IMG/VR virus record: IMGVR_UViG_3300014043_000004
Coordinates: 1 to 64,000 of that record
Origin: a virus
Lineage: Duplodnaviria; Caudoviricetes
Length of the DNA stretch: 64,000 bases
Direction: 5' to 3' (one strand)
Shown here piece by piece: positions 8,966 through 20,444 of the stretch (its first letter is position 1; each line of letters opens with the position of its first letter). The notes under the pieces were generated by a model. That model ran no database searches, was not told the DNA's origin, and was given only the letters and a program-made list of their open reading frames with translations. The position numbers were made by a program, and so were the translations under genes.

Positions 8966-9109
8966 CGCTGACAACCTAATCTGGATTGGTATTCCAGCAG
9001 CGCACGATTATCTATGGAACTTGACGAAATGGGGGTCGCGCAGGAAGCAACTTATAAAATATGACCCGTTGCTAAGATCGAGAAAGTAGATAATTTGTCC
9101 GATGGGACA

Positions 9110-9181
9110 GCGTCAGTAGCTCAGTCTGATAGAGCACTCCTGAGTTGGGAGAGGTCGGTGGTTTGAATCCATCCTGGCGCA
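9110..9181 (+). tRNA. tRNA-like gene with aberrant anticodon loop
   Basis: Normal acceptor stem GCGTCAG/CTGGCGC, D- and T-arms, but CTCCT-GAGTT-GGGAG has a 5-nt loop. Confidence 0.65.
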
Positions 9182-9241
9182 CTACACAGCACCGTCTGTT
9201 ACAGGAGTGACACCTTAATAACCGGTATAAATGTTTTGATT

Positions 9242-9784
9242 ATGAAGAATCCCAGAATCACTCAAGAAGAAATTGAGATAATCAAAAAAGCGCAAGCAGG
9301 TGACAAATCTGCTTTTTCAAAATTGTACTACCGATATAAACCATTTGTGGAGAATATTTTGTATCGATATATAAAAGACAAAGATGAGGCACGAGATATT
9401 GCCAACATCGTGTTTTTAACTGTACATAGGAAACTCTCAATGTTCACAGCATATGACTCCTTTGGAGGATGGCTGAGAATAATAACAAATCACACCGCAA
9501 TCGATTATCTTCGAACAAAGCATGAATCACAGGACATTGAAGAAGAACGACTATCTTTGGATATGCCTGGTTCTACTGAGGATGACCTTGTCAATCATCT
9601 TACAAGTAAACAGTTGATCGCCGAGTTTAATAAACTGCCTGAAATCACTCGTAAGATTTTCAAGTTGTTTTATGAAGAAGACATGAAAGTGGATGAGATT
9701 AGTGACGCGCTGAGAATCCCAGTTGGAACTATTAAGTCAACACTGTCGAGGACTAGACGCAGAATTAAAAAACGTTTAATCTAA
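9242..9784 (+). CDS. ECF-type sigma-70 family factor
   Basis: AQAGDKSAFSKLY, DEARDIANIVFL, FGGWLRII..HTAIDYLR (region 2); LPE..RKIFKL...EISDALRIPVGTIKSTLSR (region 4). Confidence 0.9.
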   Translation: MKNPRITQEEIEIIKKAQAGDKSAFSKLYYRYKPFVENILYRYIKDKDEARDIANIVFLTVHRKLSMFTAYDSFGGWLRIITNHTAIDYLRTKHESQDIEEERLSLDMPGSTEDDLVNHLTSKQLIAEFNKLPEITRKIFKLFYEEDMKVDEISDALRIPVGTIKSTLSRTRRRIKKRLI

Positions 9785-9789
9785 AAATT

Positions 9790-10200
9790 ATGACATTCTT
9801 AATGTTCATTCTTGGAATACTTCTTATTCTTTGTATCGCACGGTACAATGAGAGTAATAAGTTATTCTGGACACTGCTCACAGCATACGTGCTGTGTTTT
9901 ACAGTGGTAAAGGTGGTTAAAGGCGCCTTTAACGAGAAGGAACAAAGTGAACAGTCACTCAACCAGGCGTATCCCACACAGGGGTTGGATTTGGCGTCAG
10001 ACACATGTATGTGTTTTTTGGCAGACGAACCAATGAAGACAATCGTGAAGGAGACTTCAAAACCTGTGGGTCAGGTTAATACGCCTGATTACGTTGAGAA
10101 GATTATCACTTTAAGTGATGTCTCAGTGGTGACACCGGGACAATACCTTCACACACTGCCAAACCCACCAAACAGTGTAATACTTTTTGATACATCATGA
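9790..10200 (+). CDS. membrane protein (possible anti-sigma)
   Basis: Two N-terminal TM helices directly after the ECF sigma gene. Confidence 0.65.
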   Translation: MTFLMFILGILLILCIARYNESNKLFWTLLTAYVLCFTVVKVVKGAFNEKEQSEQSLNQAYPTQGLDLASDTCMCFLADEPMKTIVKETSKPVGQVNTPDYVEKIITLSDVSVVTPGQYLHTLPNPPNSVILFDTS

Positions 10201-10280
10201 CTGATGTAATTAACTAGTATGGCTTACAGATAAGTAGTCCAGCCAACTACAAGTATTTAATTTAAAAAACCGTTATCAAA

Positions 10281-11711
10281 ATGGCAACTAAAAAGACAAC
10301 TGCTGAAAAGGCAGCAGAGAAGGCAGCACGCGAGCAGGCAGCTCCACAAGTGGAGACTGGTGCAGCCAGGTTAAACAATAACAACAATCCTGCCACAAAA
10401 GGCCTTACTCAAGGAGAGAAGGTACAGTATGTAGCGTCTCTGCAGACAGAGCGTGCATACATAATGAATAGTGAGAATCCATCAAAGTCCATGATCGATG
10501 GTCTGTCTTTGCTTGCACAAGCAACGATTCTGGACATCGGTATTGGTGAGATGGCATGTGGTACAAGCGCAGTCGGATGCATTGTTGCAGCAAATCCGAA
10601 GAACTACGACACGTTCAAGGCGATTGCAAACGAGCTTGGTGTAAAATTGCCTGAGTTCAAAGCGCTGCCTTCCCCTACAGAGGAGCAGCTTAAGAGCGCA
10701 GGCATTGTAGGACTTCTTCCGTCAGAGGCTCGTGTTGTAACAATCGAGCAGAAAGATGTGTCTAAAGAGACCATCAAGAAGAAGAAGGATGAGATTGCAG
10801 CAGAAGCAAAAGCTGTAGAAAATCCAGCCGACATCAAGAACGAAGATCAGCTCAAAGCATCTTTGAGTGCGTTGCTGACAAAGCCAGTTCCCAACGGAAC
10901 AGATCGTCCTGATGCACGTGTTCAACGAGTAATCAACTTCTATCGTGGTTATCTTACGATTCAGGCTAACAAGGCTGAAGATAAGAAGGCAGCTCTCGAT
11001 AAGATCAACGGTATGTCCCGCATAGACATGTTGAATGCTATTACCGAGATTGTCGGTCAGTGCACATTTGCACTTTCCGGTACTGCGTACTTTCTTCGTA
11101 AGCGTACCAATGAGACCGATTCTCCTATTTCCGCCTTCTGTCTCTACCGTCGTAACGCCGTTCCTGGAAAGGACAACGGAATTGACGATTTGTACATAGC
11201 AGATCTCGTGAAAGTTCTGTTGATTTGGTCTTGTAAGAGTCAGATTGCAGAGTATGAGCGCATTATCGCCACAAACGAAAAGGTTGTGAAGAAGGAGACT
11301 GGTGCAGCCAAGAAGGCAACAGAAACTGCAATCAGCGCTCAGAAGCTCAAGATCGAAGAGCTGAATCACATTATCGCTGTAACAACGAATCCTTCGTTCG
11401 ACATTGTTGATACTCTCATAGAGAATTACAAGAAGGAAGAAGGTTCTGAGGGATATGCTCTGGCACATCGTATCGTCGATAACATCATGAAGACTTATTA
11501 TCCAGATGAGGATATCAAGACTCTTGATGAAGACGTCATGTTGAATAATGTTCAACAGCGTGCTGGTATCATAGTCAACATGTTCCGCGATCCTCTCTCT
11601 CAGTCAATTGCTTACAACGAAAGCAATTTGACCGATATGGTTAAAAAAGAAGCCCCAAAGGAGGAGAAACCCGCCGAGGAAAAGCCTGCTGAGGAAAAAC
11701 CAAAAAACTGA
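10281..11711 (+). CDS. large hypothetical protein with probable -1 frameshift isoform
   Basis: 476 aa, biased codons, TTATCAAAATG start; ends A_AAA_AAC_TGA. Confidence 0.85.
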   Translation: MATKKTTAEKAAEKAAREQAAPQVETGAARLNNNNNPATKGLTQGEKVQYVASLQTERAYIMNSENPSKSMIDGLSLLAQATILDIGIGEMACGTSAVGCIVAANPKNYDTFKAIANELGVKLPEFKALPSPTEEQLKSAGIVGLLPSEARVVTIEQKDVSKETIKKKKDEIAAEAKAVENPADIKNEDQLKASLSALLTKPVPNGTDRPDARVQRVINFYRGYLTIQANKAEDKKAALDKINGMSRIDMLNAITEIVGQCTFALSGTAYFLRKRTNETDSPISAFCLYRRNAVPGKDNGIDDLYIADLVKVLLIWSCKSQIAEYERIIATNEKVVKKETGAAKKATETAISAQKLKIEELNHIIAVTTNPSFDIVDTLIENYKKEEGSEGYALAHRIVDNIMKTYYPDEDIKTLDEDVMLNNVQQRAGIIVNMFRDPLSQSIAYNESNLTDMVKKEAPKEEKPAEEKPAEEKPKN

Positions 11712-11750
11712 TTAAGGTCCTCAAAGAAAAACTTCTAACTTTGTGGGACC
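11702..11750 (+). promoter_or_regulatory. -1 ribosomal frameshift signal
   Basis: A_AAA_AAC, 7-nt spacer, 11-bp stem GGTCCTCAAAG/CTTTG(T)GGGACC. Confidence 0.6.
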
Positions 11751-11788
11751 GACGCTGGTGGCTTCATTAACTTAAATCTATCAAAGGT

Positions 11789-12232
11789 ATGAAATATATT
11801 ACAACAATCCTTTGTGCTATAGCATTTGCTTTTTCTGGAGCTATGCTGGCATTATCGGATGACAATTCGACGATTAGAAAACATTCTACCGTCAGCGCCG
11901 CCGTTGTGCCAAATTATGGATTTCCAACGACGCCACTTATTAATCAGTTTGACACTGATAAGAAGTACACAAAAACGGATACAGTCTACTTGGATACGTA
12001 CACGGCAGTATTGCCGCCGCGTCCGATAAAAACTGTAACTAAAGTTAAACCCATATATCTTCCTGCACCTACACAAGAAGATACAGAGTCATGTACAGTA
12101 GATAAGTTCCATACGGATTCTGTTAAAAACAAAGTAGGCGTGGTTCGTGAGGAGTACACCACAGACACTATTGGACCTCCTGATAAGTCCATTATCCTTA
12201 TTGTCGACGGTAAGGAAGTCTATAAACGATAG
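11789..12232 (+). CDS. exported protein
   Basis: N-terminal signal peptide; Pro/Thr-rich; TAG stop. Confidence 0.7.
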   Translation: MKYITTILCAIAFAFSGAMLALSDDNSTIRKHSTVSAAVVPNYGFPTTPLINQFDTDKKYTKTDTVYLDTYTAVLPPRPIKTVTKVKPIYLPAPTQEDTESCTVDKFHTDSVKNKVGVVREEYTTDTIGPPDKSIILIVDGKEVYKR

Positions 12233-12239
12233 TCACTCC

Positions 12240-14460
12240 GCAGCTGGGGGATAGGGAGATACTGCTCTCTGTCCCCAGAGCAATGCATACTCTTTCGTAG
12301 AACAGCTGGTCAGTGCATTTCAGGTGGGTCTCATTAGCCCAGGCACGAAATAGTACAACTTGATCCGAGAATATGTTAGCCTGCTCAACAGGTGAGAAAC
12401 GCAAAAGGTAGGATGAAATGCTATAAAGATTGCGACGTACTACACAATTTGAAAACTTTATAGTAAGAGGATTAAAGCGCATGTATCAAGTCCTTCTGCT
12501 CCGAGAACCGACTGGTGGGGGAAAGTAAACAGTAAAAGGCGCGTAAGTCTCGAAAAGAGCAAAACTGAACCGTATCGACAATCTAAGCGATGATACATAA
12601 ACTTAGAATTAACGTCACACGAGCTGCAACATTACATTTATCCAAGGCATGTAATGATGTATCAATTAAGCTGTAGTCTAGTGTTCCACGTCTCCACAAC
12701 GTGTATGAAGGGATGAAAAATATCTGAGTAAACTATATTGTGAGAATAATACTCACAAGTTGTATGGTAAATATGACGCCTATGTAAAACCTTGCCGTTC
12801 GATTCGCAAACATCTCGTAAAAGAGCTTGTGAGAGTCTAACATGGTAACTTGATGATATACGAGATGGCAACACGTCCAAAATCGGTGTCCAGGGATGGG
12901 GTAAAACGGCTGATTACGTTGAAGATGACCGCCAGGCCTTAGTCGTTCATGCGGGATATAAAAGTAGAATGACTACCGGGGTAGGGCAACCCCCGAAGCT
13001 CAGGTGAGCGCGCGGATGAAGCCCGCGTAGAAAGGCTATTTCAAAGATAGTTAATACTGGTAAGCGAGTATGATACTATAGAACGATCTATGTTATGAGG
13101 AAATGCAGCATAGTAAGATGACCACTTGACAGTCAAAAACAAAATAAAGAGGTCGATTCAAAGACTATACACGCCAGTATAGAGGGAGATCGCTTCTTTC
13201 GAAAGCATTAAATAACCAGATGATTGTACTTGTGTTACTACATCATATGGGAATACTGTAGAGTAGTAAACTACATACCATGTGTGAACGATACATTACA
13301 TGTAAGTGATTCTGTATAAAAAGATGTAAGTAGAAAACAATAAGTGATATTAACATGTTTAACAAAAATTGATGTCCCCTGGCTGGGAGAAAGATAAAGA
13401 CTACGTTTGTAATGTTTGTGAGTGCTTTCACGCCAGAAATCGAGTGCCAACCGTTCCTGAGAAGCAAGTAGCAAGATGGGAAACTAAGCGAAGCATAGAC
13501 TGCAAATCTATGTGGGTGGATACCATGAAGCAATATGCGTCAACGATGCAAGGCAGCTATCGTGAAGTGAAATCACCTCCCTGTCTCGGAGGGGTAAAGC
13601 GACTGGTTAATAGTCCATCGCAAGATGGTTCGCTGTTGCCAGAAACCGACGAAACGAATCCGTAGTGGGTGATAAATCTAGACGTATGAGGTGGAATTCC
13701 TCCAGTATTCGTGCACTATAAATAAATGAGGCAAGCAATATGCCAAGAGAAGAAAACAAGCCGTAAAGTCGTTAGGAAGAATCCTGAATCGTAGTACTTG
13801 AAAAGAGCTTTGGAACTCTTAGACTGTTCGATAACGAAACGTACTCCTCACGTACACCACACGCACGGTGTATAAAAAGCAGGAAAAAACAAGCCTGTCA
13901 TAGTGGACAGGAGCCCCCCGCGATGTTGCTGAGCGGAATATAAATCATGGCATCAGCGTAGTAGATTCGAATGTTCTTGGGAAATACATTATCGAAGATA
14001 TTACAAAAATTTTACGGGTATTAAATATTGGACTTAGTAAGACTATTCTACGAGCATTAGTCCTTCGTGAAATTTTGTCAACGAATAGTTTGAAAGTGAA
14101 TCAATATATGTTTTACAAAAAATAAACATTTTAACATACAGAAAGAAAACTTAGCATTTGATTATGCACAGTCAGCATTTAAAGTTTAAGAACCTATTAA
14201 TGCTATAGGTATAAATATCCTACCGTTGGATTCCTGTTACATGAGTTGAGCTTCACATTTGCCATACTTAAATGTATTGGGTCGAGGAATATAGAAGTGT
14301 AACAACATTAATAGAAACGTGCTTCCCATTAGCACAGCAACTGGCGTAATAAGTAACAAACAATCGCGCTCGTAGAGCCAGCGAGCCGGAGCGTATTTTT
14401 TTAATATAGGCAACTCCGCCTTGAAGGAGAAAAAATTAATCTTGTCGTTGGTGGATCAAC
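12240..14460 (+). ncRNA. ~2.2-kb structured non-coding region (one or more large RNAs)
   Basis: No convincing ORF; GNRA-capped hairpins (e.g. CCATC-GCAA-GATGG) and pseudoknot-like elements. Confidence 0.5.
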
Positions 14461-14485
14461 CACGATATCAAAAAGGATAAGAAAA

Positions 14486-15148
14486 ATGGAAAAAACAAAC
14501 ACTATTGATGTCAACATCAATACTACATTGGCTGGCGCACGCCAGACTGCAAGCCTCATTGGCGGTCTTCTTGGTAAAGCTTACGCAACCGTAGAGGCAC
14601 GTGACATATGGCAGGGTGGTAAAGAAGGTTACGAACGTGACAAGGCTGCTGCAGCAACATCTGCCGCACTCATCACCAATCGTTCTCCTCGTAAGTTTAT
14701 GCTGAAGACTCAGGATATCCTGGGTGCGGTAACGTATCAGCAGCCTATGACGAAGCAGATTGGTATCGCAATCAACCTGCGTTCTGACGGAACTTACGAC
14801 ATGTTCTTCCCGCTCGACGGAACAAACCCAGTAATAGCTGAGAAGCCTATTGCTGATGCTGTATCCGACGCCATTCACGGAGAAGGTAACAACTTCTTCT
14901 TGGAGCCTACAAAGGTGGTTAACATCATCAATGAGGGCAACCGTGCAGAGATCAAGAACATCGACAATTTGGTTTCGTCCTTGCTGAAGATGAAGCAGAA
15001 TCTTCTTACCGCTGTAAACGAGAATGAGAAGAAGGCTGCAGAGATCGAGAAGGAGTGGATCAATTCTAAGATCGACGGAGTTGGCATCAAAGAGGTGATT
15101 GCAGGTAGCAATGCAACACTCAACGTTCATACATCTACTGAAGGATAA
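14486..15148 (+). CDS. hypothetical protein
   Basis: 220 aa, biased codons. Confidence 0.8.
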   Translation: MEKTNTIDVNINTTLAGARQTASLIGGLLGKAYATVEARDIWQGGKEGYERDKAAAATSAALITNRSPRKFMLKTQDILGAVTYQQPMTKQIGIAINLRSDGTYDMFFPLDGTNPVIAEKPIADAVSDAIHGEGNNFFLEPTKVVNIINEGNRAEIKNIDNLVSSLLKMKQNLLTAVNENEKKAAEIEKEWINSKIDGVGIKEVIAGSNATLNVHTSTEG

Positions 15149-15150
15149 AT

Positions 15151-15735
15151 ATGAACAAGACCCTCACAAAGAGAACCGTACAACTTATGGCTCTCTTAAT
15201 GTTAGATGAAACCATAGCAGAAAAGGTAAAGTCTGCAAATGGCGAGGGCAAATCATTTGAGATATTTGATATAGATGACGCTACGGGAAATGTAACTCTC
15301 GGTGTCACTAGATTCAAATGGTGGAATCAACTCATTAAATGTCAGGTAAAACTGACGTTTACAAGTTGGGCACTCGCCGTATGGGATGCCCTTGTTAGTC
15401 TTTCTAAAGGTGGCAACGCTGTTGCTATTGAGGAAGGGCTTAGTGTAGAAATCGCAAAGAAAGCGCAGCGTGAAAGTGAGTTTAATTGGGTAGTTGAAAG
15501 ATTGTGTGATGTATACGACCACGTGGTAAATAATAAGAACGGTGGAGCGTCTCTCGAGGGAGACCGGGAGAAGTCGGGTCCGAGCGTAATCGTTCGCGAT
15601 CGTGGTAATGCTGAAACAATTGTCAACGTAAACGTATCTGATATGCGCAAAACGTTTCGCTTTCCAGACGCAACAGGTCAAGCATTTCTTGATGTAGAAA
15701 TGGGAGTTGTTGGACTAGGAGTTTCAAAGAAATAA
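15151..15735 (+). CDS. hypothetical protein
   Basis: 194 aa, 2 bp after previous gene. Confidence 0.8.
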   Translation: MNKTLTKRTVQLMALLMLDETIAEKVKSANGEGKSFEIFDIDDATGNVTLGVTRFKWWNQLIKCQVKLTFTSWALAVWDALVSLSKGGNAVAIEEGLSVEIAKKAQRESEFNWVVERLCDVYDHVVNNKNGGASLEGDREKSGPSVIVRDRGNAETIVNVNVSDMRKTFRFPDATGQAFLDVEMGVVGLGVSKK

Positions 15736-16009
15736 TAATCCCGAGGGATTTAGTTCATAAGATATCGAGGTATTTTACGAACACTCTTAAAAACAAATAG
15801 AAAGACAATAACTGTCTATATCGAGAGATACAGAAAAATAAAAAAAACAATCTCATCTATAATACTCGAGGGTATTCGGGGGGTAGGAATCGAGGTTCCT
15901 GCCTCCCAGAGATTTGTTTTATATCAATTTGTTTTGATATAAAGCGCGTAGGTAATATCTCGAATTCAACATAATTAACGGAAGTCTAACTAAAATCAAG
16001 TGTAAATAT

Positions 16010-16552
16010 ATGACGAAATCAATTAAGTTGAACTCAGGTAAGATAATTAATATGCGTAAGGATATCGATGCTAAGAAGAAGAAATATTGGAGTTACATTA
16101 AGAGCGAGAATCTTATGTCCAAAAAAGAGATCAAAGCAGGTCTCCGTACGCACGATCTGAAGGCTCTCTATAACGAGATTACTCAGATGGCAGAGAAGCT
16201 AGTATATATTAAAGGTATGTTGTTCTATTTGAATATGGGTACTACAACCTTTGATAAGGAGGCTTTCAAGAAGACGAACAATTATAGTATTTTCATGGCT
16301 TGTGAGATGAAGGAGGCTATTGCCCAGTTGAAAATGATTCCTACATTGGATCAGAAGACAAAGGCACAGAAGGGTCTTAAAGCTATGAATAAAGAAGAAG
16401 TTTTCACCAGCGCCAAGATTGCTACCCTTGTTAAGGATCTGCAGTTAAAGGCAAATAAGTTTGATACAAACATGGAGAACTTTAATAACTCTACAGAGAT
16501 TACTATCGATGATACTCTCACCGATATGTTTAAGTCAGATTTGGCTATATAA
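16010..16552 (+). CDS. basic helical protein
   Basis: 180-aa ORF. Confidence 0.8.
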   Translation: MTKSIKLNSGKIINMRKDIDAKKKKYWSYIKSENLMSKKEIKAGLRTHDLKALYNEITQMAEKLVYIKGMLFYLNMGTTTFDKEAFKKTNNYSIFMACEMKEAIAQLKMIPTLDQKTKAQKGLKAMNKEEVFTSAKIATLVKDLQLKANKFDTNMENFNNSTEITIDDTLTDMFKSDLAI

Positions 16553-16678
16553 TAGTATCAAACAGATCAGATATGTTGGTGCATATGTGTAAAGAAACAT
16601 ATGAGCGGATCGTTCCCGTAACTGATCACAAATTTCCCAAAAAATTAACATGTATAACTTAAAAAAATCATAATCAAT

Positions 16679-17509
16679 ATGAAAAATAATAACACAGTAG
16701 ACACTGCCCAGAAGGGTCAGACTGCTAATAAGATACAGCCTGAAAAGGTACAGAACAACTTGAAGAAAATTCAGGAGATAAAGAACGCTAAGAAGGATAA
16801 AACTCCAACTGGCAAAGTAATAGTAATTTCCGAAAAAGAGTCTACACGAAAGGCTCGTGAGGAACAGTACCGTAACTTCCGCATAAACGCTTTAAAACGT
16901 CGAGCAGGACGTATGGGTCTCTCTGAGGAGGAGATTGAAAAGGCTGTAAAGAAATTGATAGAGCAAATGGACGCTCCTAAGGAGTATAGCATACTCATCA
17001 TGGTTGCAAAAGCTACCAGGAAAAAAGACAAACCTGATATAACAATGCTTAAAGAAGCTTTGGCTAAAGAAGGTATCAAATATGCATTCTGTGGAGATGA
17101 CTTTGTATCTGTCAATGGTAACCAGGACATCTTGGCTAAAATACGCGAAATAGCCCCTCCTAGCGCAAAGATTTATCCTCATGCTAAGAAGATGGAATCT
17201 GTTCTTCCTAAGAAGGAATATCTAAAGACAAAGAAACCTTCTAACAACTCTAAGGAAAAGGCTCTTACGGCAAAAATAGCACGCAAAGAGAAGAAAATTC
17301 GTATTCACCGTAATAAGAAAACCGGCGAAATCGAGCATCGTAAGATAAGTGAACGTTCAAATCGTCACTCAAATCCGACGAAAAAATATACTAAGAAAAT
17401 AGTGCTAAAAACGCTCGCTAAAGCGAAGAAACGTAATTCTAGTATAGTTGTCCAGATGCCTACCAAAAAGGCGTCAGAGGGCTCTAAAACGCTTAAGAAA
17501 GCCGCTTAA
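16679..17509 (+). CDS. highly basic protein ending -KKAA
   Basis: 276 aa, Lys/Arg-rich. Confidence 0.8.
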   Translation: MKNNNTVDTAQKGQTANKIQPEKVQNNLKKIQEIKNAKKDKTPTGKVIVISEKESTRKAREEQYRNFRINALKRRAGRMGLSEEEIEKAVKKLIEQMDAPKEYSILIMVAKATRKKDKPDITMLKEALAKEGIKYAFCGDDFVSVNGNQDILAKIREIAPPSAKIYPHAKKMESVLPKKEYLKTKKPSNNSKEKALTAKIARKEKKIRIHRNKKTGEIEHRKISERSNRHSNPTKKYTKKIVLKTLAKAKKRNSSIVVQMPTKKASEGSKTLKKAA

Positions 17510-17538
17510 CGTATGTTTAACCTAATAGAAAAACTGAT

Positions 17539-18300
17539 ATGGGACATAGCAGCATACGTATTAAGATTCGTAGAAGAAAAGTAGCGAATCTTGCAGCCTA
17601 CAGTCGTCAACACACCGTTAGAAATTGTACAATACCCAAAGTCGATAAAAACGACATAATAGATGTCAAATATCCTTGGGGTGTTGTAAAAGGCACCAAA
17701 GGAGGTGGATGGGATATTCCAAAAGAAGGTTATCCACAGTGTAAAAATCTTCATAAGAGAATACATGGACAGAAGTGGGTGAAACATAAAGATGGTACCA
17801 CAGAACTCATAAAGTGGGATTATCCGTCCGAGTTCCCCAATCCACAAGACTATCAAAAGAAATTGTGGAAGAACCTTAGTAAAGCTGATAAAATGAAAGC
17901 TTACGAGGATGAAAAGGTAAGAAAGTGGGATAAGAAGAATCCAAAACCATGCCCTGAAGACGATCTGTTCAAGGACGAGTTTATCCCAATGTGGGAAAAA
18001 GAGCGTGAGGAAGCTTTGACACGAATACGAGACTTTGTTGTCTCGATGTTTGACAAATTGCCGTTAACTGGTCGGTACAAAGAAGGTGACAATAAGTTCA
18101 CTGAAAAACCAGTTGCAGAGCTTAAAGATGTTAATGGAGATGGACATCGAGTAAACGAACTCGATTCCAAATCTAAACTTCTGAATAAAGCTCAAAAGGT
18201 GACCAATAAAGAGAAAGCTAACAATGCTAAACTAGTCGCCACAAATCTGAAGGACCACAAGCGGAAGAAAGGAAGAGTAATACTTCCTAAAGCCGCATAA
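17539..18300 (+). CDS. basic protein ending -PKAA
   Basis: 253-aa ORF. Confidence 0.8.
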   Translation: MGHSSIRIKIRRRKVANLAAYSRQHTVRNCTIPKVDKNDIIDVKYPWGVVKGTKGGGWDIPKEGYPQCKNLHKRIHGQKWVKHKDGTTELIKWDYPSEFPNPQDYQKKLWKNLSKADKMKAYEDEKVRKWDKKNPKPCPEDDLFKDEFIPMWEKEREEALTRIRDFVVSMFDKLPLTGRYKEGDNKFTEKPVAELKDVNGDGHRVNELDSKSKLLNKAQKVTNKEKANNAKLVATNLKDHKRKKGRVILPKAA

Positions 18301-18524: not shown

Positions 18525-20444
18525 ATGTGGATACGGAATGATCTAGTCGTTATATACGATATAGAAATCTTTCCAAACTGCTTCCACTGTTGCTGTAAAG
18601 ATACAGAAGATGGTAAAATTTATAAGTTCGAAATATCAGAACGAAAGAATCAGCTTACAGACTTAGTTGATTTCTTTTTAAAGCCTAAGATAATATTCGC
18701 AGGCTACAACAACCATCATTATGATGATGTCATAATTAACTACATAATAGATTATAAGAGTAAACTGGCAAGGCTACCATATTGGCAAGTTTGCCAGTCT
18801 CTTTTTAATCTATCTACTACGATAGTGGAAGACGAGGAAGGGAGTCGTGAGAAGCTCAAGCGATGGAAGTATGCACATTACTTCAAATCTATGGACTTAC
18901 TCACAATGCAGTTTAGTCAAAAGTTACGAGTAGGCTTAAAAACCATGCAAGTAACTATGCACTATAAAAACGTGCAAGAATACGATGGAGACTTTAACCA
19001 GCCTCTACCAGTAGATAAGATTGACGAAATGATTGCATATAACATAAATGATGTCGAATCGACTACAGAGTTATTAAACCGCTTGAAAGAGCAAATCGAT
19101 TTAAGATTGTTTATTGAAAAAGAACACGGCATAGATTGTCTCTCTATGGACAGTGTTAAAATGGCAGAGACCTTCTTGTTAGAAGAATATTCTAAGAAGT
19201 CAGGTATTCCTAAAAATGTTATAAAGGAAATGCGTTCTCCAATGGATTATATTCCACTGAAGGATGTTATTTTGCCATTTATAAAATATAAAAATCCAAA
19301 GTTACAAGCCGTTCTAGAGGATATGAAGAAGCAGGTAGTATACTCTAAAGAGCGCAAAGGCTATGAGAAGAAGTTTGTTCTCTCAAATGTGGTGTATTCT
19401 GTAGGTGTTGGTGGTATACATTCTATTAACACTCCACAAATATTCCACCCTAAAGATGACGAGCACATAGGACACGCTGATGTAACGTCCATGTATCCGT
19501 CTTTGTTGATCAAATATCAACTTGGACCTCGACACTTAGGAAAATTTTTTTGCGATATATTCGAAGGCATATACTACGAACGAATAGAAGCAAAACGTAC
19601 TGGTCAAAAGATTAAGAACCTGTTTTTAAAGATCGTGCTTAATTCTCCTACTGGAAAAATGCAGCAGGAGGTGAGTTGGATGTATGATCCGTTCAATGTT
19701 TTTAAGATTAGAATAAACGGTCAGCTAATTCTTTTAATGCTCGTAGACAGACTTTTAGAGCTCGGATGTGAAATTATTCAGGTAAACACAGACGGCGTTG
19801 TCTACAGGGCTAAAAACAGCCTTAAAGATGGAATTCAGGAAGCCATTCATGAGGTTGAACAAATCACTCAACTTGGTTTTGAAGTAGATGAGTACGAAGC
19901 TTTCTATCAATACGCTATTAATGACTACTTTGGGGTCTTAAAGGGCGGAGAGATAGAAGAAAAAGGTATGTTTATAACTAAGACCAAATTAGGCAAAGGT
20001 TTAGCACCGGTAGTAATACCGAAAGCTATAATAGCATACTTTGTACACAAAACGCCGGTGGCAGAGTTTATTGAGAAGGACAGAGACATCCGGGATTTCT
20101 TAATGTCACAAGCAGTAGATAAGAAGTTCAAAGTTGTACATGGTGAAAAACCTATACAACGTATCAATAGATTTTATGCAAGCACTAACGGACCATATCT
20201 TTATAAAGTAAAGAAAAATGATAATCCTGGACACCATACACTCATAAATCCATGGGGATACCCAGAGGAATATGATATTCCAGAAGAGTCGTGGTCTAAT
20301 ATGTTAACCAAATCAGGAGTAACAATCCTGAATAAATTTGATGATCTACCGATAGAAGATCGAAAGATTAACTATCGTTACTATATCAGTGAAGCCAAAA
20401 AAGTGATAGCAGACTTTACTGAACAACAGCTATCATTATTTTAG
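18525..20444 (+). CDS. polB: DNA polymerase family B
   Basis: Exo YDIE, GYNNHHYD, YNINDV; Pol DVTSMYP, KIVLNSPTGK, NTDG; C-terminal QLSLF. Confidence 0.92.
   Translation: MWIRNDLVVIYDIEIFPNCFHCCCKDTEDGKIYKFEISERKNQLTDLVDFFLKPKIIFAGYNNHHYDDVIINYIIDYKSKLARLPYWQVCQSLFNLSTTIVEDEEGSREKLKRWKYAHYFKSMDLLTMQFSQKLRVGLKTMQVTMHYKNVQEYDGDFNQPLPVDKIDEMIAYNINDVESTTELLNRLKEQIDLRLFIEKEHGIDCLSMDSVKMAETFLLEEYSKKSGIPKNVIKEMRSPMDYIPLKDVILPFIKYKNPKLQAVLEDMKKQVVYSKERKGYEKKFVLSNVVYSVGVGGIHSINTPQIFHPKDDEHIGHADVTSMYPSLLIKYQLGPRHLGKFFCDIFEGIYYERIEAKRTGQKIKNLFLKIVLNSPTGKMQQEVSWMYDPFNVFKIRINGQLILLMLVDRLLELGCEIIQVNTDGVVYRAKNSLKDGIQEAIHEVEQITQLGFEVDEYEAFYQYAINDYFGVLKGGEIEEKGMFITKTKLGKGLAPVVIPKAIIAYFVHKTPVAEFIEKDRDIRDFLMSQAVDKKFKVVHGEKPIQRINRFYASTNGPYLYKVKKNDNPGHHTLINPWGYPEEYDIPEESWSNMLTKSGVTILNKFDDLPIEDRKINYRYYISEAKKVIADFTEQQLSLF

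Follow-up and report, generated by a model that had tools for sequence, protein, structure and literature searches.

A conserved non-coding gap of the Suoliviridae as a candidate locus for very large structured RNA

GOLLD and ROOL are the described RNAs that lie closest to the element examined here. GOLLD occurs in Lactobacillales, in lake metagenomes and in their phages, and was found by cryo-EM to be an RNA-only multimer (PMC12286853). ROOL, a rumen-originating ornate large RNA of about 580 nt, assembles with copies of itself into a cage-like homo-oligomer (PMC12286853). For crAss-like phages, Yutin et al. (2021) recorded genomic regions without recognisable proteins and left them uninterpreted (PMC7886860). 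No paper describing the RNA proposed below was found in a literature search.

The locus studied here occupies about 2.1 kb of a 64-kb window (the whole stretch of phage DNA that was analysed, numbered from its first nucleotide). Like GOLLD, it would specify a large, many-stemmed, covariation-supported non-coding RNA carried by a phage, and tRNA and tmRNA genes lie within a few kilobases of it. It differs from GOLLD in being ca. 2.5 times longer, in belonging to crAss-like phages of Bacteroidota only and in not standing directly beside a tRNA gene. GOLLD is, to our knowledge, the largest ornate phage-borne RNA known. With ROOL, the locus shares a gut/rumen habitat, a link to mobile or phage DNA and an ornate multi-stem architecture; however, it is ca. 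3.5 times longer, has other hosts and yielded no long-range helices pointing to a compact single fold. Ribosomal RNA is comparable in size and architecture only (a length of kilobases, domains arranged in a chain, conserved single-stranded cores that covarying helices hold in place, and expansion segments specific to lineages); unlike it, the locus matched no rRNA model and had neither a terminal processing helix nor detectable long-range domain-closing helices. Sponge RNAs of the CsrB/RsmZ type are likewise non-coding and built of many loop-presenting hairpins, but the loops of the Suoliviridae locus are mutually different, are each conserved individually and include no enriched repeat motif. 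A CsrB-like protein sponge was considered and set aside; k-mer enrichment was unremarkable, and neither k-mers nor short loop motifs were convincingly enriched in the gap.

Rfam gave no match at the gathering score in the whole window, the covariance models of GOLLD and ROOL included, and nothing meaningful at E<10 in 11800-14900. Matches to FsrA, SurA, sR14 and IsrM fell far below threshold and were rejected. When the class of large ornate RNAs (GOLLD, ROOL, OLE) is defined loosely, as RNAs that are longer than 500 nt and non-coding and have many helices with compensatory changes, the locus fits it in these respects. On balance, we favour the reading that a very large structured non-coding RNA, specific to the Suoliviridae, has its gene or locus at ca. 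12296-14404 (plus strand).

Setting, coding potential and conservation of the gap

The window is the first part of a single phage contig of 102,611 bp. As judged from DNA and protein searches, the genome is that of a crAss-like phage of the family Suoliviridae from the gut (rumen-type), and its nearest named relatives are the Oafivirinae genera Buhlduvirus, Chuhaivirus, Cacepaovirus, Burzaovirus and Bohxovirus. The rightward gene direction holds up to ca. 30 kb of the genome. The gene order is an ECF-type sigma factor (9236-9784), genes of 136, 476 and 147 aa, the gap, genes of 220 and 194 aa, more small genes and then a family B DNA polymerase (PolB, 18525-20444); the non-coding gap sits in the early/replication gene arm. 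The features that delimit it are as follows.

11789-12232, plus strand: upstream gene (147 aa), a syntenic partner of the gap
12233-14485, plus strand: interval without ORFs, flanked by two co-oriented genes and larger than any other non-coding stretch of the genome
12296-14404, plus strand: proposed structured RNA body of ca. 2.1 kb, with collinear conserved blocks and covarying helices
14486-15148, plus strand: downstream gene (220 aa, starting at ATG 14486), a syntenic partner of the gap

The upstream protein has an N-terminus like that of a signal peptide or lipoprotein and looks secreted. No family or fold match was obtained for the 220-aa and 476-aa neighbours in Pfam, PHROGs or the ESM Atlas, and an AlphaFold2 model of the 220-aa protein (pLDDT 66) suggested no function when submitted to Foldseek. 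Family and fold searches of the neighbouring proteins gave no sign of an RNA-binding partner.

The first-pass annotation, made from the sequence alone, had described 2.2 kb of structured non-coding sequence with no credible coding sequence. The coding part of that description was borne out. With a 75-aa ORF threshold, at which the ranking as largest non-coding stretch was made, the gap is interrupted solely by chance frames; the longest in 12233-14485 are 98 aa (plus strand, TTG start) and 96 aa (minus strand). Reassignment of stop codons (TAG=Q, TGA=W, TAA=Q) opened no long frame in the gap. The genome is without a suppressor tRNA, and TAG terminates 27 of its 69 long ORFs. All stop-to-stop frames of at least 30 aa in the gap were translated and searched against 33 relatives; in no case did more than 14 of these keep the frame open and alignable across 70% of its length. 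The best-kept frame (14/33) is on the minus strand, over the most conserved DNA block, and the frame of 98-100 aa was retained in three of the 33. Conserved small ORFs, which had been named in advance as a competing explanation, were not borne out, since no frame was kept in most of these relatives.

Relatives were fetched from IMG/VR by means of an invariant 17-mer (13706-13722), which returned 93 stretches; a search for related loci with the 220-aa protein returned one near-identical locus only. The full region was present in 61 fetched loci (IMG/VR stretches and phage records), which were reduced to 34 sequences of <95% identity, i.e. the window genome and 33 non-redundant relatives. Gap length was 2.0-2.3 kb in all 34 when chance frames were allowed for. 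Column identity was 0.6-0.9 in the cores of the gap, compared to 0.3-0.6 in adjoining coding DNA, and against the named relatives the flanking proteins were just 23-38% identical, whereas blocks of the gap were 74-82% identical as DNA. These comparisons show the gap to be better conserved, at the level of aligned DNA, than the genes that flank it. Between the conserved blocks lie dips in conservation and hot spots of insertion; the order of the blocks is preserved across subfamilies whose proteins are ca. 30% identical. The two most conserved cores (12356-12545 and ca. 13330-13720) are also those recognisable in other subfamilies.

Six more Suoliviridae records were fetched via the sigma factor: cr10_1 and cr1_1 (Boorivirinae), cr115_1 and cr118_1 (Uncouvirinae), cr6_1 (Bearivirinae) and cr4_1 (Loutivirinae). 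An unannotated gap of 1.9-2.5 kb in the same gene order was present in all six and in the Loutivirinae record cr52_1, such that a gap of this size occupies the same syntenic place in all five Suoliviridae subfamilies. A sequence profile detected collinear blocks in cr4_1, cr52_1 and cr1_1. The 5' cores of these three fit R1, a 66-position covariance model of the 5' core, with compensatory changes, and they were afterwards added to its seed. In the search by R1 with filters off, cr10_1, cr115_1 and cr6_1 yielded no clear 5' core, and cr118_1 gave a weak but position-consistent match (E 0.16). Homology by sequence or model is thus shown for three subfamilies, and for the other two the evidence is synteny and size. 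Among the 93 IMG/VR loci, R1 matched 73, with one copy in each. When the entire gap was searched by blastn against 50,697 phage records, the sole match outside the Suoliviridae was a lemur-gut phage that is unclassified and shares the synteny.

Base pairing and architecture

Local helices were sought in the 34 sequences with the criteria of at least four stacked pairs, at least 85% canonical pairing and a span of at most 150. The scan returned 56 conserved helices, eight of which had a covariance sum of at least 2; in thirty column-permuted alignments the mean number of helices was 0.73 (maximum 3), and none had a covariance sum of at least 2. When ten overlapping segments were re-aligned and folded, approximately 46 distinct helices with 234 pairs were obtained, and 157 of these pairs had at least one change on both sides. 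Covariation among homologs was the check that the first-pass annotation had put forward, and compensatory changes were found to be widespread across these diverged sequences.

The 5' domain was counted separately, using 29 hand-placed pairs in five helices (12356-12530). Pairing was found in 84.1% of cells (64.3% in shuffles), there were 216 double-change cells (75.7 in shuffles), and the covariation score was 0.571 compared to 0.222, a value reached by none of 500 shuffles; slid partners scored 0.08-0.18. In the R1 alignment, 99.2% of cells were paired and all eight pairs were compensatory in 49 distinct sequences, although this alignment was fitted to the model and is biased towards it. RNAalifold, applied to plain MAFFT alignments, was far more conservative and still returned compensatory pairs; on the near-invariant central core it returned unvarying pairs only. 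The comparison with the 33 relatives shows purifying selection in the gap that acts on base pairing and not on protein.

Cells with G-U pairs outnumbered those with A-C in the helices (832 vs. 250). A scan of the plus strand gave 56 helices with a covariance sum of 56.7, and the reverse complement gave 49 helices with a sum of 40.8. Because of the G-U excess, the weaker scan of the reverse complement and the orientation of the flanking genes, which like the purine-rich skew lie on the plus strand, the data point to the plus strand.

Single-sequence folding told a different story. Compared to dinucleotide shuffles, minimum free energies (MFE) were z = +0.16 for 12296-13290 and z = -1.05 for 13291-14285, whereas a coding control (10300-11294) gave z = -3.95. 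The evidence for structure is comparative and is invisible in one sequence. The structured character ascribed to the gap at first reading accordingly stands as far as the helices found by comparing 34 sequences are concerned, but the density of hairpins in one sequence is not above chance.

The elements between the upstream stop codon and the 3' hairpins are listed below.

12244-12278, plus strand: strong hairpin just 3' of the upstream stop codon, with a sequence unconserved in relatives
12313-12348, plus strand: first of the conserved hairpins; its outer stem covaries and its loop is near-invariant
12356-12421, plus strand: 5' core (model R1), with helices 12363-12366/12411-12414 and 12380-12383/12389-12392 around invariant single-stranded blocks
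12419-12465, plus strand: long variable hairpin (expansion segment), with compensatory change in 8-9 of 9-10 pairs
12468-12521, plus strand: pair of hairpins, 12468-12495 and 12499-12521, both with conserved loops, that of 12499-12521 being near-invariant, 15 nt long and containing AACCG
12538-12685, plus strand: domain with closing helix 12538-12542/12681-12685 and nested helices 12591-12597/12658-12664 and 12630-12636/12650-12656
12671-12899, plus strand: multi-helix domain closed by 12671-12674/12896-12899, with hairpins 12676-12714, 12738-12758, 12759-12777 and 12793-12809 and helix 12810-12816/12884-12889
12940-13191, plus strand: series of covarying hairpins at 12940-12975 (near-invariant loop), 12977-12995, 13011-13027, 13055-13070, 13119-13135 and 13155-13191, the last enclosing 13167-13180
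13353-13557, plus strand: central domain with closing helix 13371-13377/13551-13557 and helix 13378-13383/13431-13436
13664-13722, plus strand: most conserved core, with near-invariant helix 13664-13672/13709-13717 around hairpin 13684-13708, and the invariant 17-mer
13762-13855, plus strand: domain closed by 13762-13770/13822-13830 with an inner hairpin, followed by a small hairpin at 13841-13855
14046-14239, plus strand: less conserved 3' part, with helices 14046-14056/14076-14085, an A/U hairpin at 14108-14129, hairpins at 14154-14167 and 14174-14186, and helix 14203-14209/14233-14239 with 14217-14231 within it

The resulting picture is a chain of about 8-10 putative domains, in which covarying stems would present near-invariant loops and junctions. 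The hairpin at 12244-12278 is possibly a boundary or processing element. The R1 core is present as a single copy per relative. Within the multi-helix domain, an insertion at ca. 12817-12880 is carried by about 7% of relatives. The central domain contains an invariant block (ca. 13441-13453) and a hairpin (13493-13513) in which all seven pairs covary, and it gave nhmmer matches in other subfamilies. The hairpin noticed earlier at ca. 13688 (13688-13702) proved real and conserved, its middle pair varying between A-U, G-C and U-A among relatives. In all variants read, positions 1 and 5 of its 7-nt loop (13692-13698) are U and A, respectively, which suggests that the loop is T-loop-like. An operator-like copy that had been proposed at 13777 did not hold up: it lies in an insertion (ca. 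13771-13795) common to only about 13% of relatives and is no copy of the element at 14366. Insertion hot spots between domains resemble expansion segments.

All well-supported helices are local; the domain-closing helices (12538/12685, 12671/12899, 13371/13557 and 13762/13830) have spans of 150-230 nt. No helix spanning more than ca. 230 nt rose above the noise floor, and the best such candidates clash with strong local hairpins. A duplex search of the ends in the 34 sequences revealed no closing duplex between 5' and 3' (mean z -0.09). A 15-nt complementarity between 12143-12157 and 13841-13855 was rejected as probably due to chance; it is retained in the closest relatives only and overlies an invariant R-E-E protein motif.

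The putative 3' boundary and RNA-library contigs

Three hairpins precede the downstream gene.

14366-14402, plus strand: hairpin whose outer stem covaries and whose interior has a conserved direct repeat (GAGCC twice, separated by three bases), followed in this genome by a T-run (14396-14402)
14414-14429, plus strand: hairpin with a covarying stem, ahead of the downstream gene
14440-14482, plus strand: near-invariant hairpin that pairs the purine-rich ribosome-binding stretch (14473-14477) just before ATG 14486

The element at 14366 had been read as an operator-like copy. What remains of that reading is a real, conserved hairpin (14366-14393) whose outer stem covaries; the operator-like copy was not upheld. 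Together with the T-run, the hairpin looks like an intrinsic terminator, which makes it a candidate 3' end of the RNA. The hairpin is conserved in most relatives, and hairpin plus T-run were present in nine of 30 tested (four more were without the anchor). A consensus terminator scan had skipped it, since its loop exceeds 8 nt. The hairpin at 14440-14482 is probably a translational control element (operator) of the downstream gene, separate from the big RNA. The last ca. 125 nt (14366-14482) are more likely a terminator and a translational operator than part of the big RNA. The 3' hairpin and an A-rich hairpin were also considered as recurring promoter or operator motifs; neither recurs elsewhere in the genome.

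The stretch is contained in 20 sequencing runs from 11 studies (mostly bovine gut), 12 of which are on record as RNA. These twelve contain between one quarter and almost three fifths of the words sampled from 11500-15500. Four runs from four studies were examined over 9000-18000, and contigs over the locus were present in all of them, although contigs show no ends, strand or level. Some bridge the flanking genes, such as X1 (9020-15948) and X2 (9234-14616), which share one strain and may carry virion DNA. For X1/X2, a sequencing adapter at 9020 could mark either a discrete RNA end or a DNA terminus. Transcription of the locus is likely. A contig from an oligo-dT run ends at 14395 and one from a size-fractionated run starts at 14429; they flank the terminator-like hairpin and provide a weak hint in support of a 3' end there.

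Readings of the locus

The presence of one or more functional structured RNA elements in the gap is very probable. The original suggestion of one or more undescribed large RNAs is supported by the lack of an Rfam family, the lack of a conserved ORF, the widespread compensatory changes and the family-wide synteny. The locus would specify a single RNA of about 2.1 kb or else a string of closely spaced RNA domains, and we put a single transcript of 1.9 kb or more at slightly under an even chance. The string, a set of independent elements (stable RNAs of small size, sites of processing, and control hairpins of long leaders or UTRs) inherited together through one operon, is a serious rival that we regard as possible without favouring it. 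It would account for the confinement of the well-supported helices to spans of at most 230 nt, the want of a terminal closing helix, the conservation dips and insertion hot spots between blocks, the clear tie of the 3' hairpins to the ribosome-binding site of the downstream gene and the unremarkable MFE z-scores at the kilobase scale. It sits less easily with a total length that stays at 1.9-2.5 kb and a block order that is preserved across subfamilies, with no lineage seen to lack a module. A consensus scan, moreover, gave no excess of internal promoter-like sites and placed all five reported terminator-like sites on the minus strand, and RNA-library contigs traverse the whole block.

Readings other than structured RNA fare worse. 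That the gap is a DNA-level element (a replication origin, packaging site or regulatory region with hairpins in single-stranded DNA) is improbable: its position upstream of the replication genes (PolB) and its richness in hairpins would suit one, but it contains no iterons, tandem repeats or AT-rich unwinding block, it is not at an extremum of cumulative GC skew (these are at 29 kb and 96 kb), and the strand-asymmetric excess of G-U fits RNA pairing. Two kilobases of compensatory helices also far exceed the need of any origin known to us. Delta-group crAss-like phages carry group I introns (PMC7886860), which lends some interest to a self-splicing intron, another mobile RNA element or a remnant of one. 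Such an origin is nevertheless very improbable here, as no group I or group II model matched even at E<10, no endonuclease ORF was found, the flanking genes stand as complete, independent genes in all relatives, and the locus is fixed instead of being patchily distributed. That coding was missed, in the form of small proteins, of a gene with recoding or of a decayed gene (pseudogene), is scarcely credible. Records of some relatives do have small gene-caller ORFs in the gap, and a protein database holds a TAG read-through form of the upstream gene (225 aa). Against these stand the failure of any frame to be retained in most relatives, the stop-codon and suppressor-tRNA results given above, and conservation exceeding that of live neighbour genes, unlike the expectation for a pseudogene.

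Were the locus to act as a large RNA, transcription would run rightward with, or from within, an operon starting upstream of the phage sigma-factor gene, and the RNA would end near the terminator-like hairpin. It would function as RNA, with the folded domains (100-230 nt each) chained such that covarying stems position the near-invariant single-stranded loops and junctions as contact surfaces. Our best guess is a modular scaffold that would assemble with phage or host proteins in early to middle infection or, alternatively, with its own copies, as ROOL and GOLLD do; a mechanism of scaffolding or assembly is offered tentatively. The more ambitious idea that a single stable RNA spans the whole block of ca. 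2.1 kb and forms by folding, or nucleates, a particle the size of a ribosome, be it an RNP with phage or host proteins or an RNA-only multimer like ROOL/GOLLD, is rather unlikely. If that idea were true, no phage would be known to have a larger structured non-ribosomal RNA, and the RNA would occur in one of the most abundant phage families of human and animal guts. All members of the family devote about 2% of a densely packed genome to the element, which is conserved above the surrounding proteins. As one RNA, at about 2.5 times the length of GOLLD, it would provide a clean cryo-EM target and a way into what large RNAs do for phages.

The model of the 5' core was also carried beyond phage records. 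Most of the 27 matches from a GTDB scan, considered as further loci, were chance 17-mers. With one genome per species, 185,579 prokaryote species contained the R1 core only on three phage-like contigs, one of which is ca. 101 kb long and was binned with Segatella copri.

The tmRNA-like gene and tRNA-Thr

ARAGORN was the source of these RNA-gene calls in the window:

7120-7429, permuted tmRNA (end of the tag peptide, LKEAA)
9110-9182, tRNA-Thr (AGT)

The tmRNA was not reported in the Rfam search at the gathering score, and the tRNA-Thr was likewise absent from the Rfam gathering list, which gives only three tRNAs. An annotated tmRNA is present in the Suoliviridae relatives cr10_1 and cr115_1, in both cases also within the early arm. 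The tmRNA-like gene and two tRNAs are contained in a 1.3-kb stretch (6662-7994) that ranks second in size among those without ORFs of at least 75 aa. Several candidate RNA elements in this stretch had been noticed in the first-pass annotation from the sequence alone.

Coding sequence upstream of the non-coding block

The end of the 147-aa gene (11789-12232, + strand), directly upstream of the ORF-free block (12233-14485, + strand), contains a 15-nt match (12143-12157) that is 93% complementary to a hairpin loop of the proposed RNA (13841-13855). Because this complementarity is retained in the closest relatives only, and because it falls on an invariant R-E-E protein motif, the pairing is probably due to chance. 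In a public protein cluster, the same gene was found in a 225-aa form (11789-12466), which reads through four TAG codons into the non-coding block; this form was rejected as a gene-calling artefact of an alternative code.

Folding of the mRNA of the 476-aa gene, located farther upstream, was evaluated over 10300-11294 against its own shuffles. The z-score was -3.95, and none of the 20 shuffles folded as well. Such much-better-than-shuffled folding was seen in this mRNA, but not in the adjoining non-coding block.

A probable molecule end at 9020 and a hint of the host

Contigs from X1 and X2, two sequencing runs that are on record as RNA and share one phage strain, start at 9020 with Illumina adapter sequence, which implies a discrete molecule end at that position. 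This end is either the 5' end of a transcript, upstream of the tRNA-Thr and the ECF-type sigma-factor gene (9236-9784), or a physical DNA end.

Two GTDB contigs of ca. 101 kb, both near-complete relatives of this phage, were binned in Segatella copri MAGs, which hints at the host genus.
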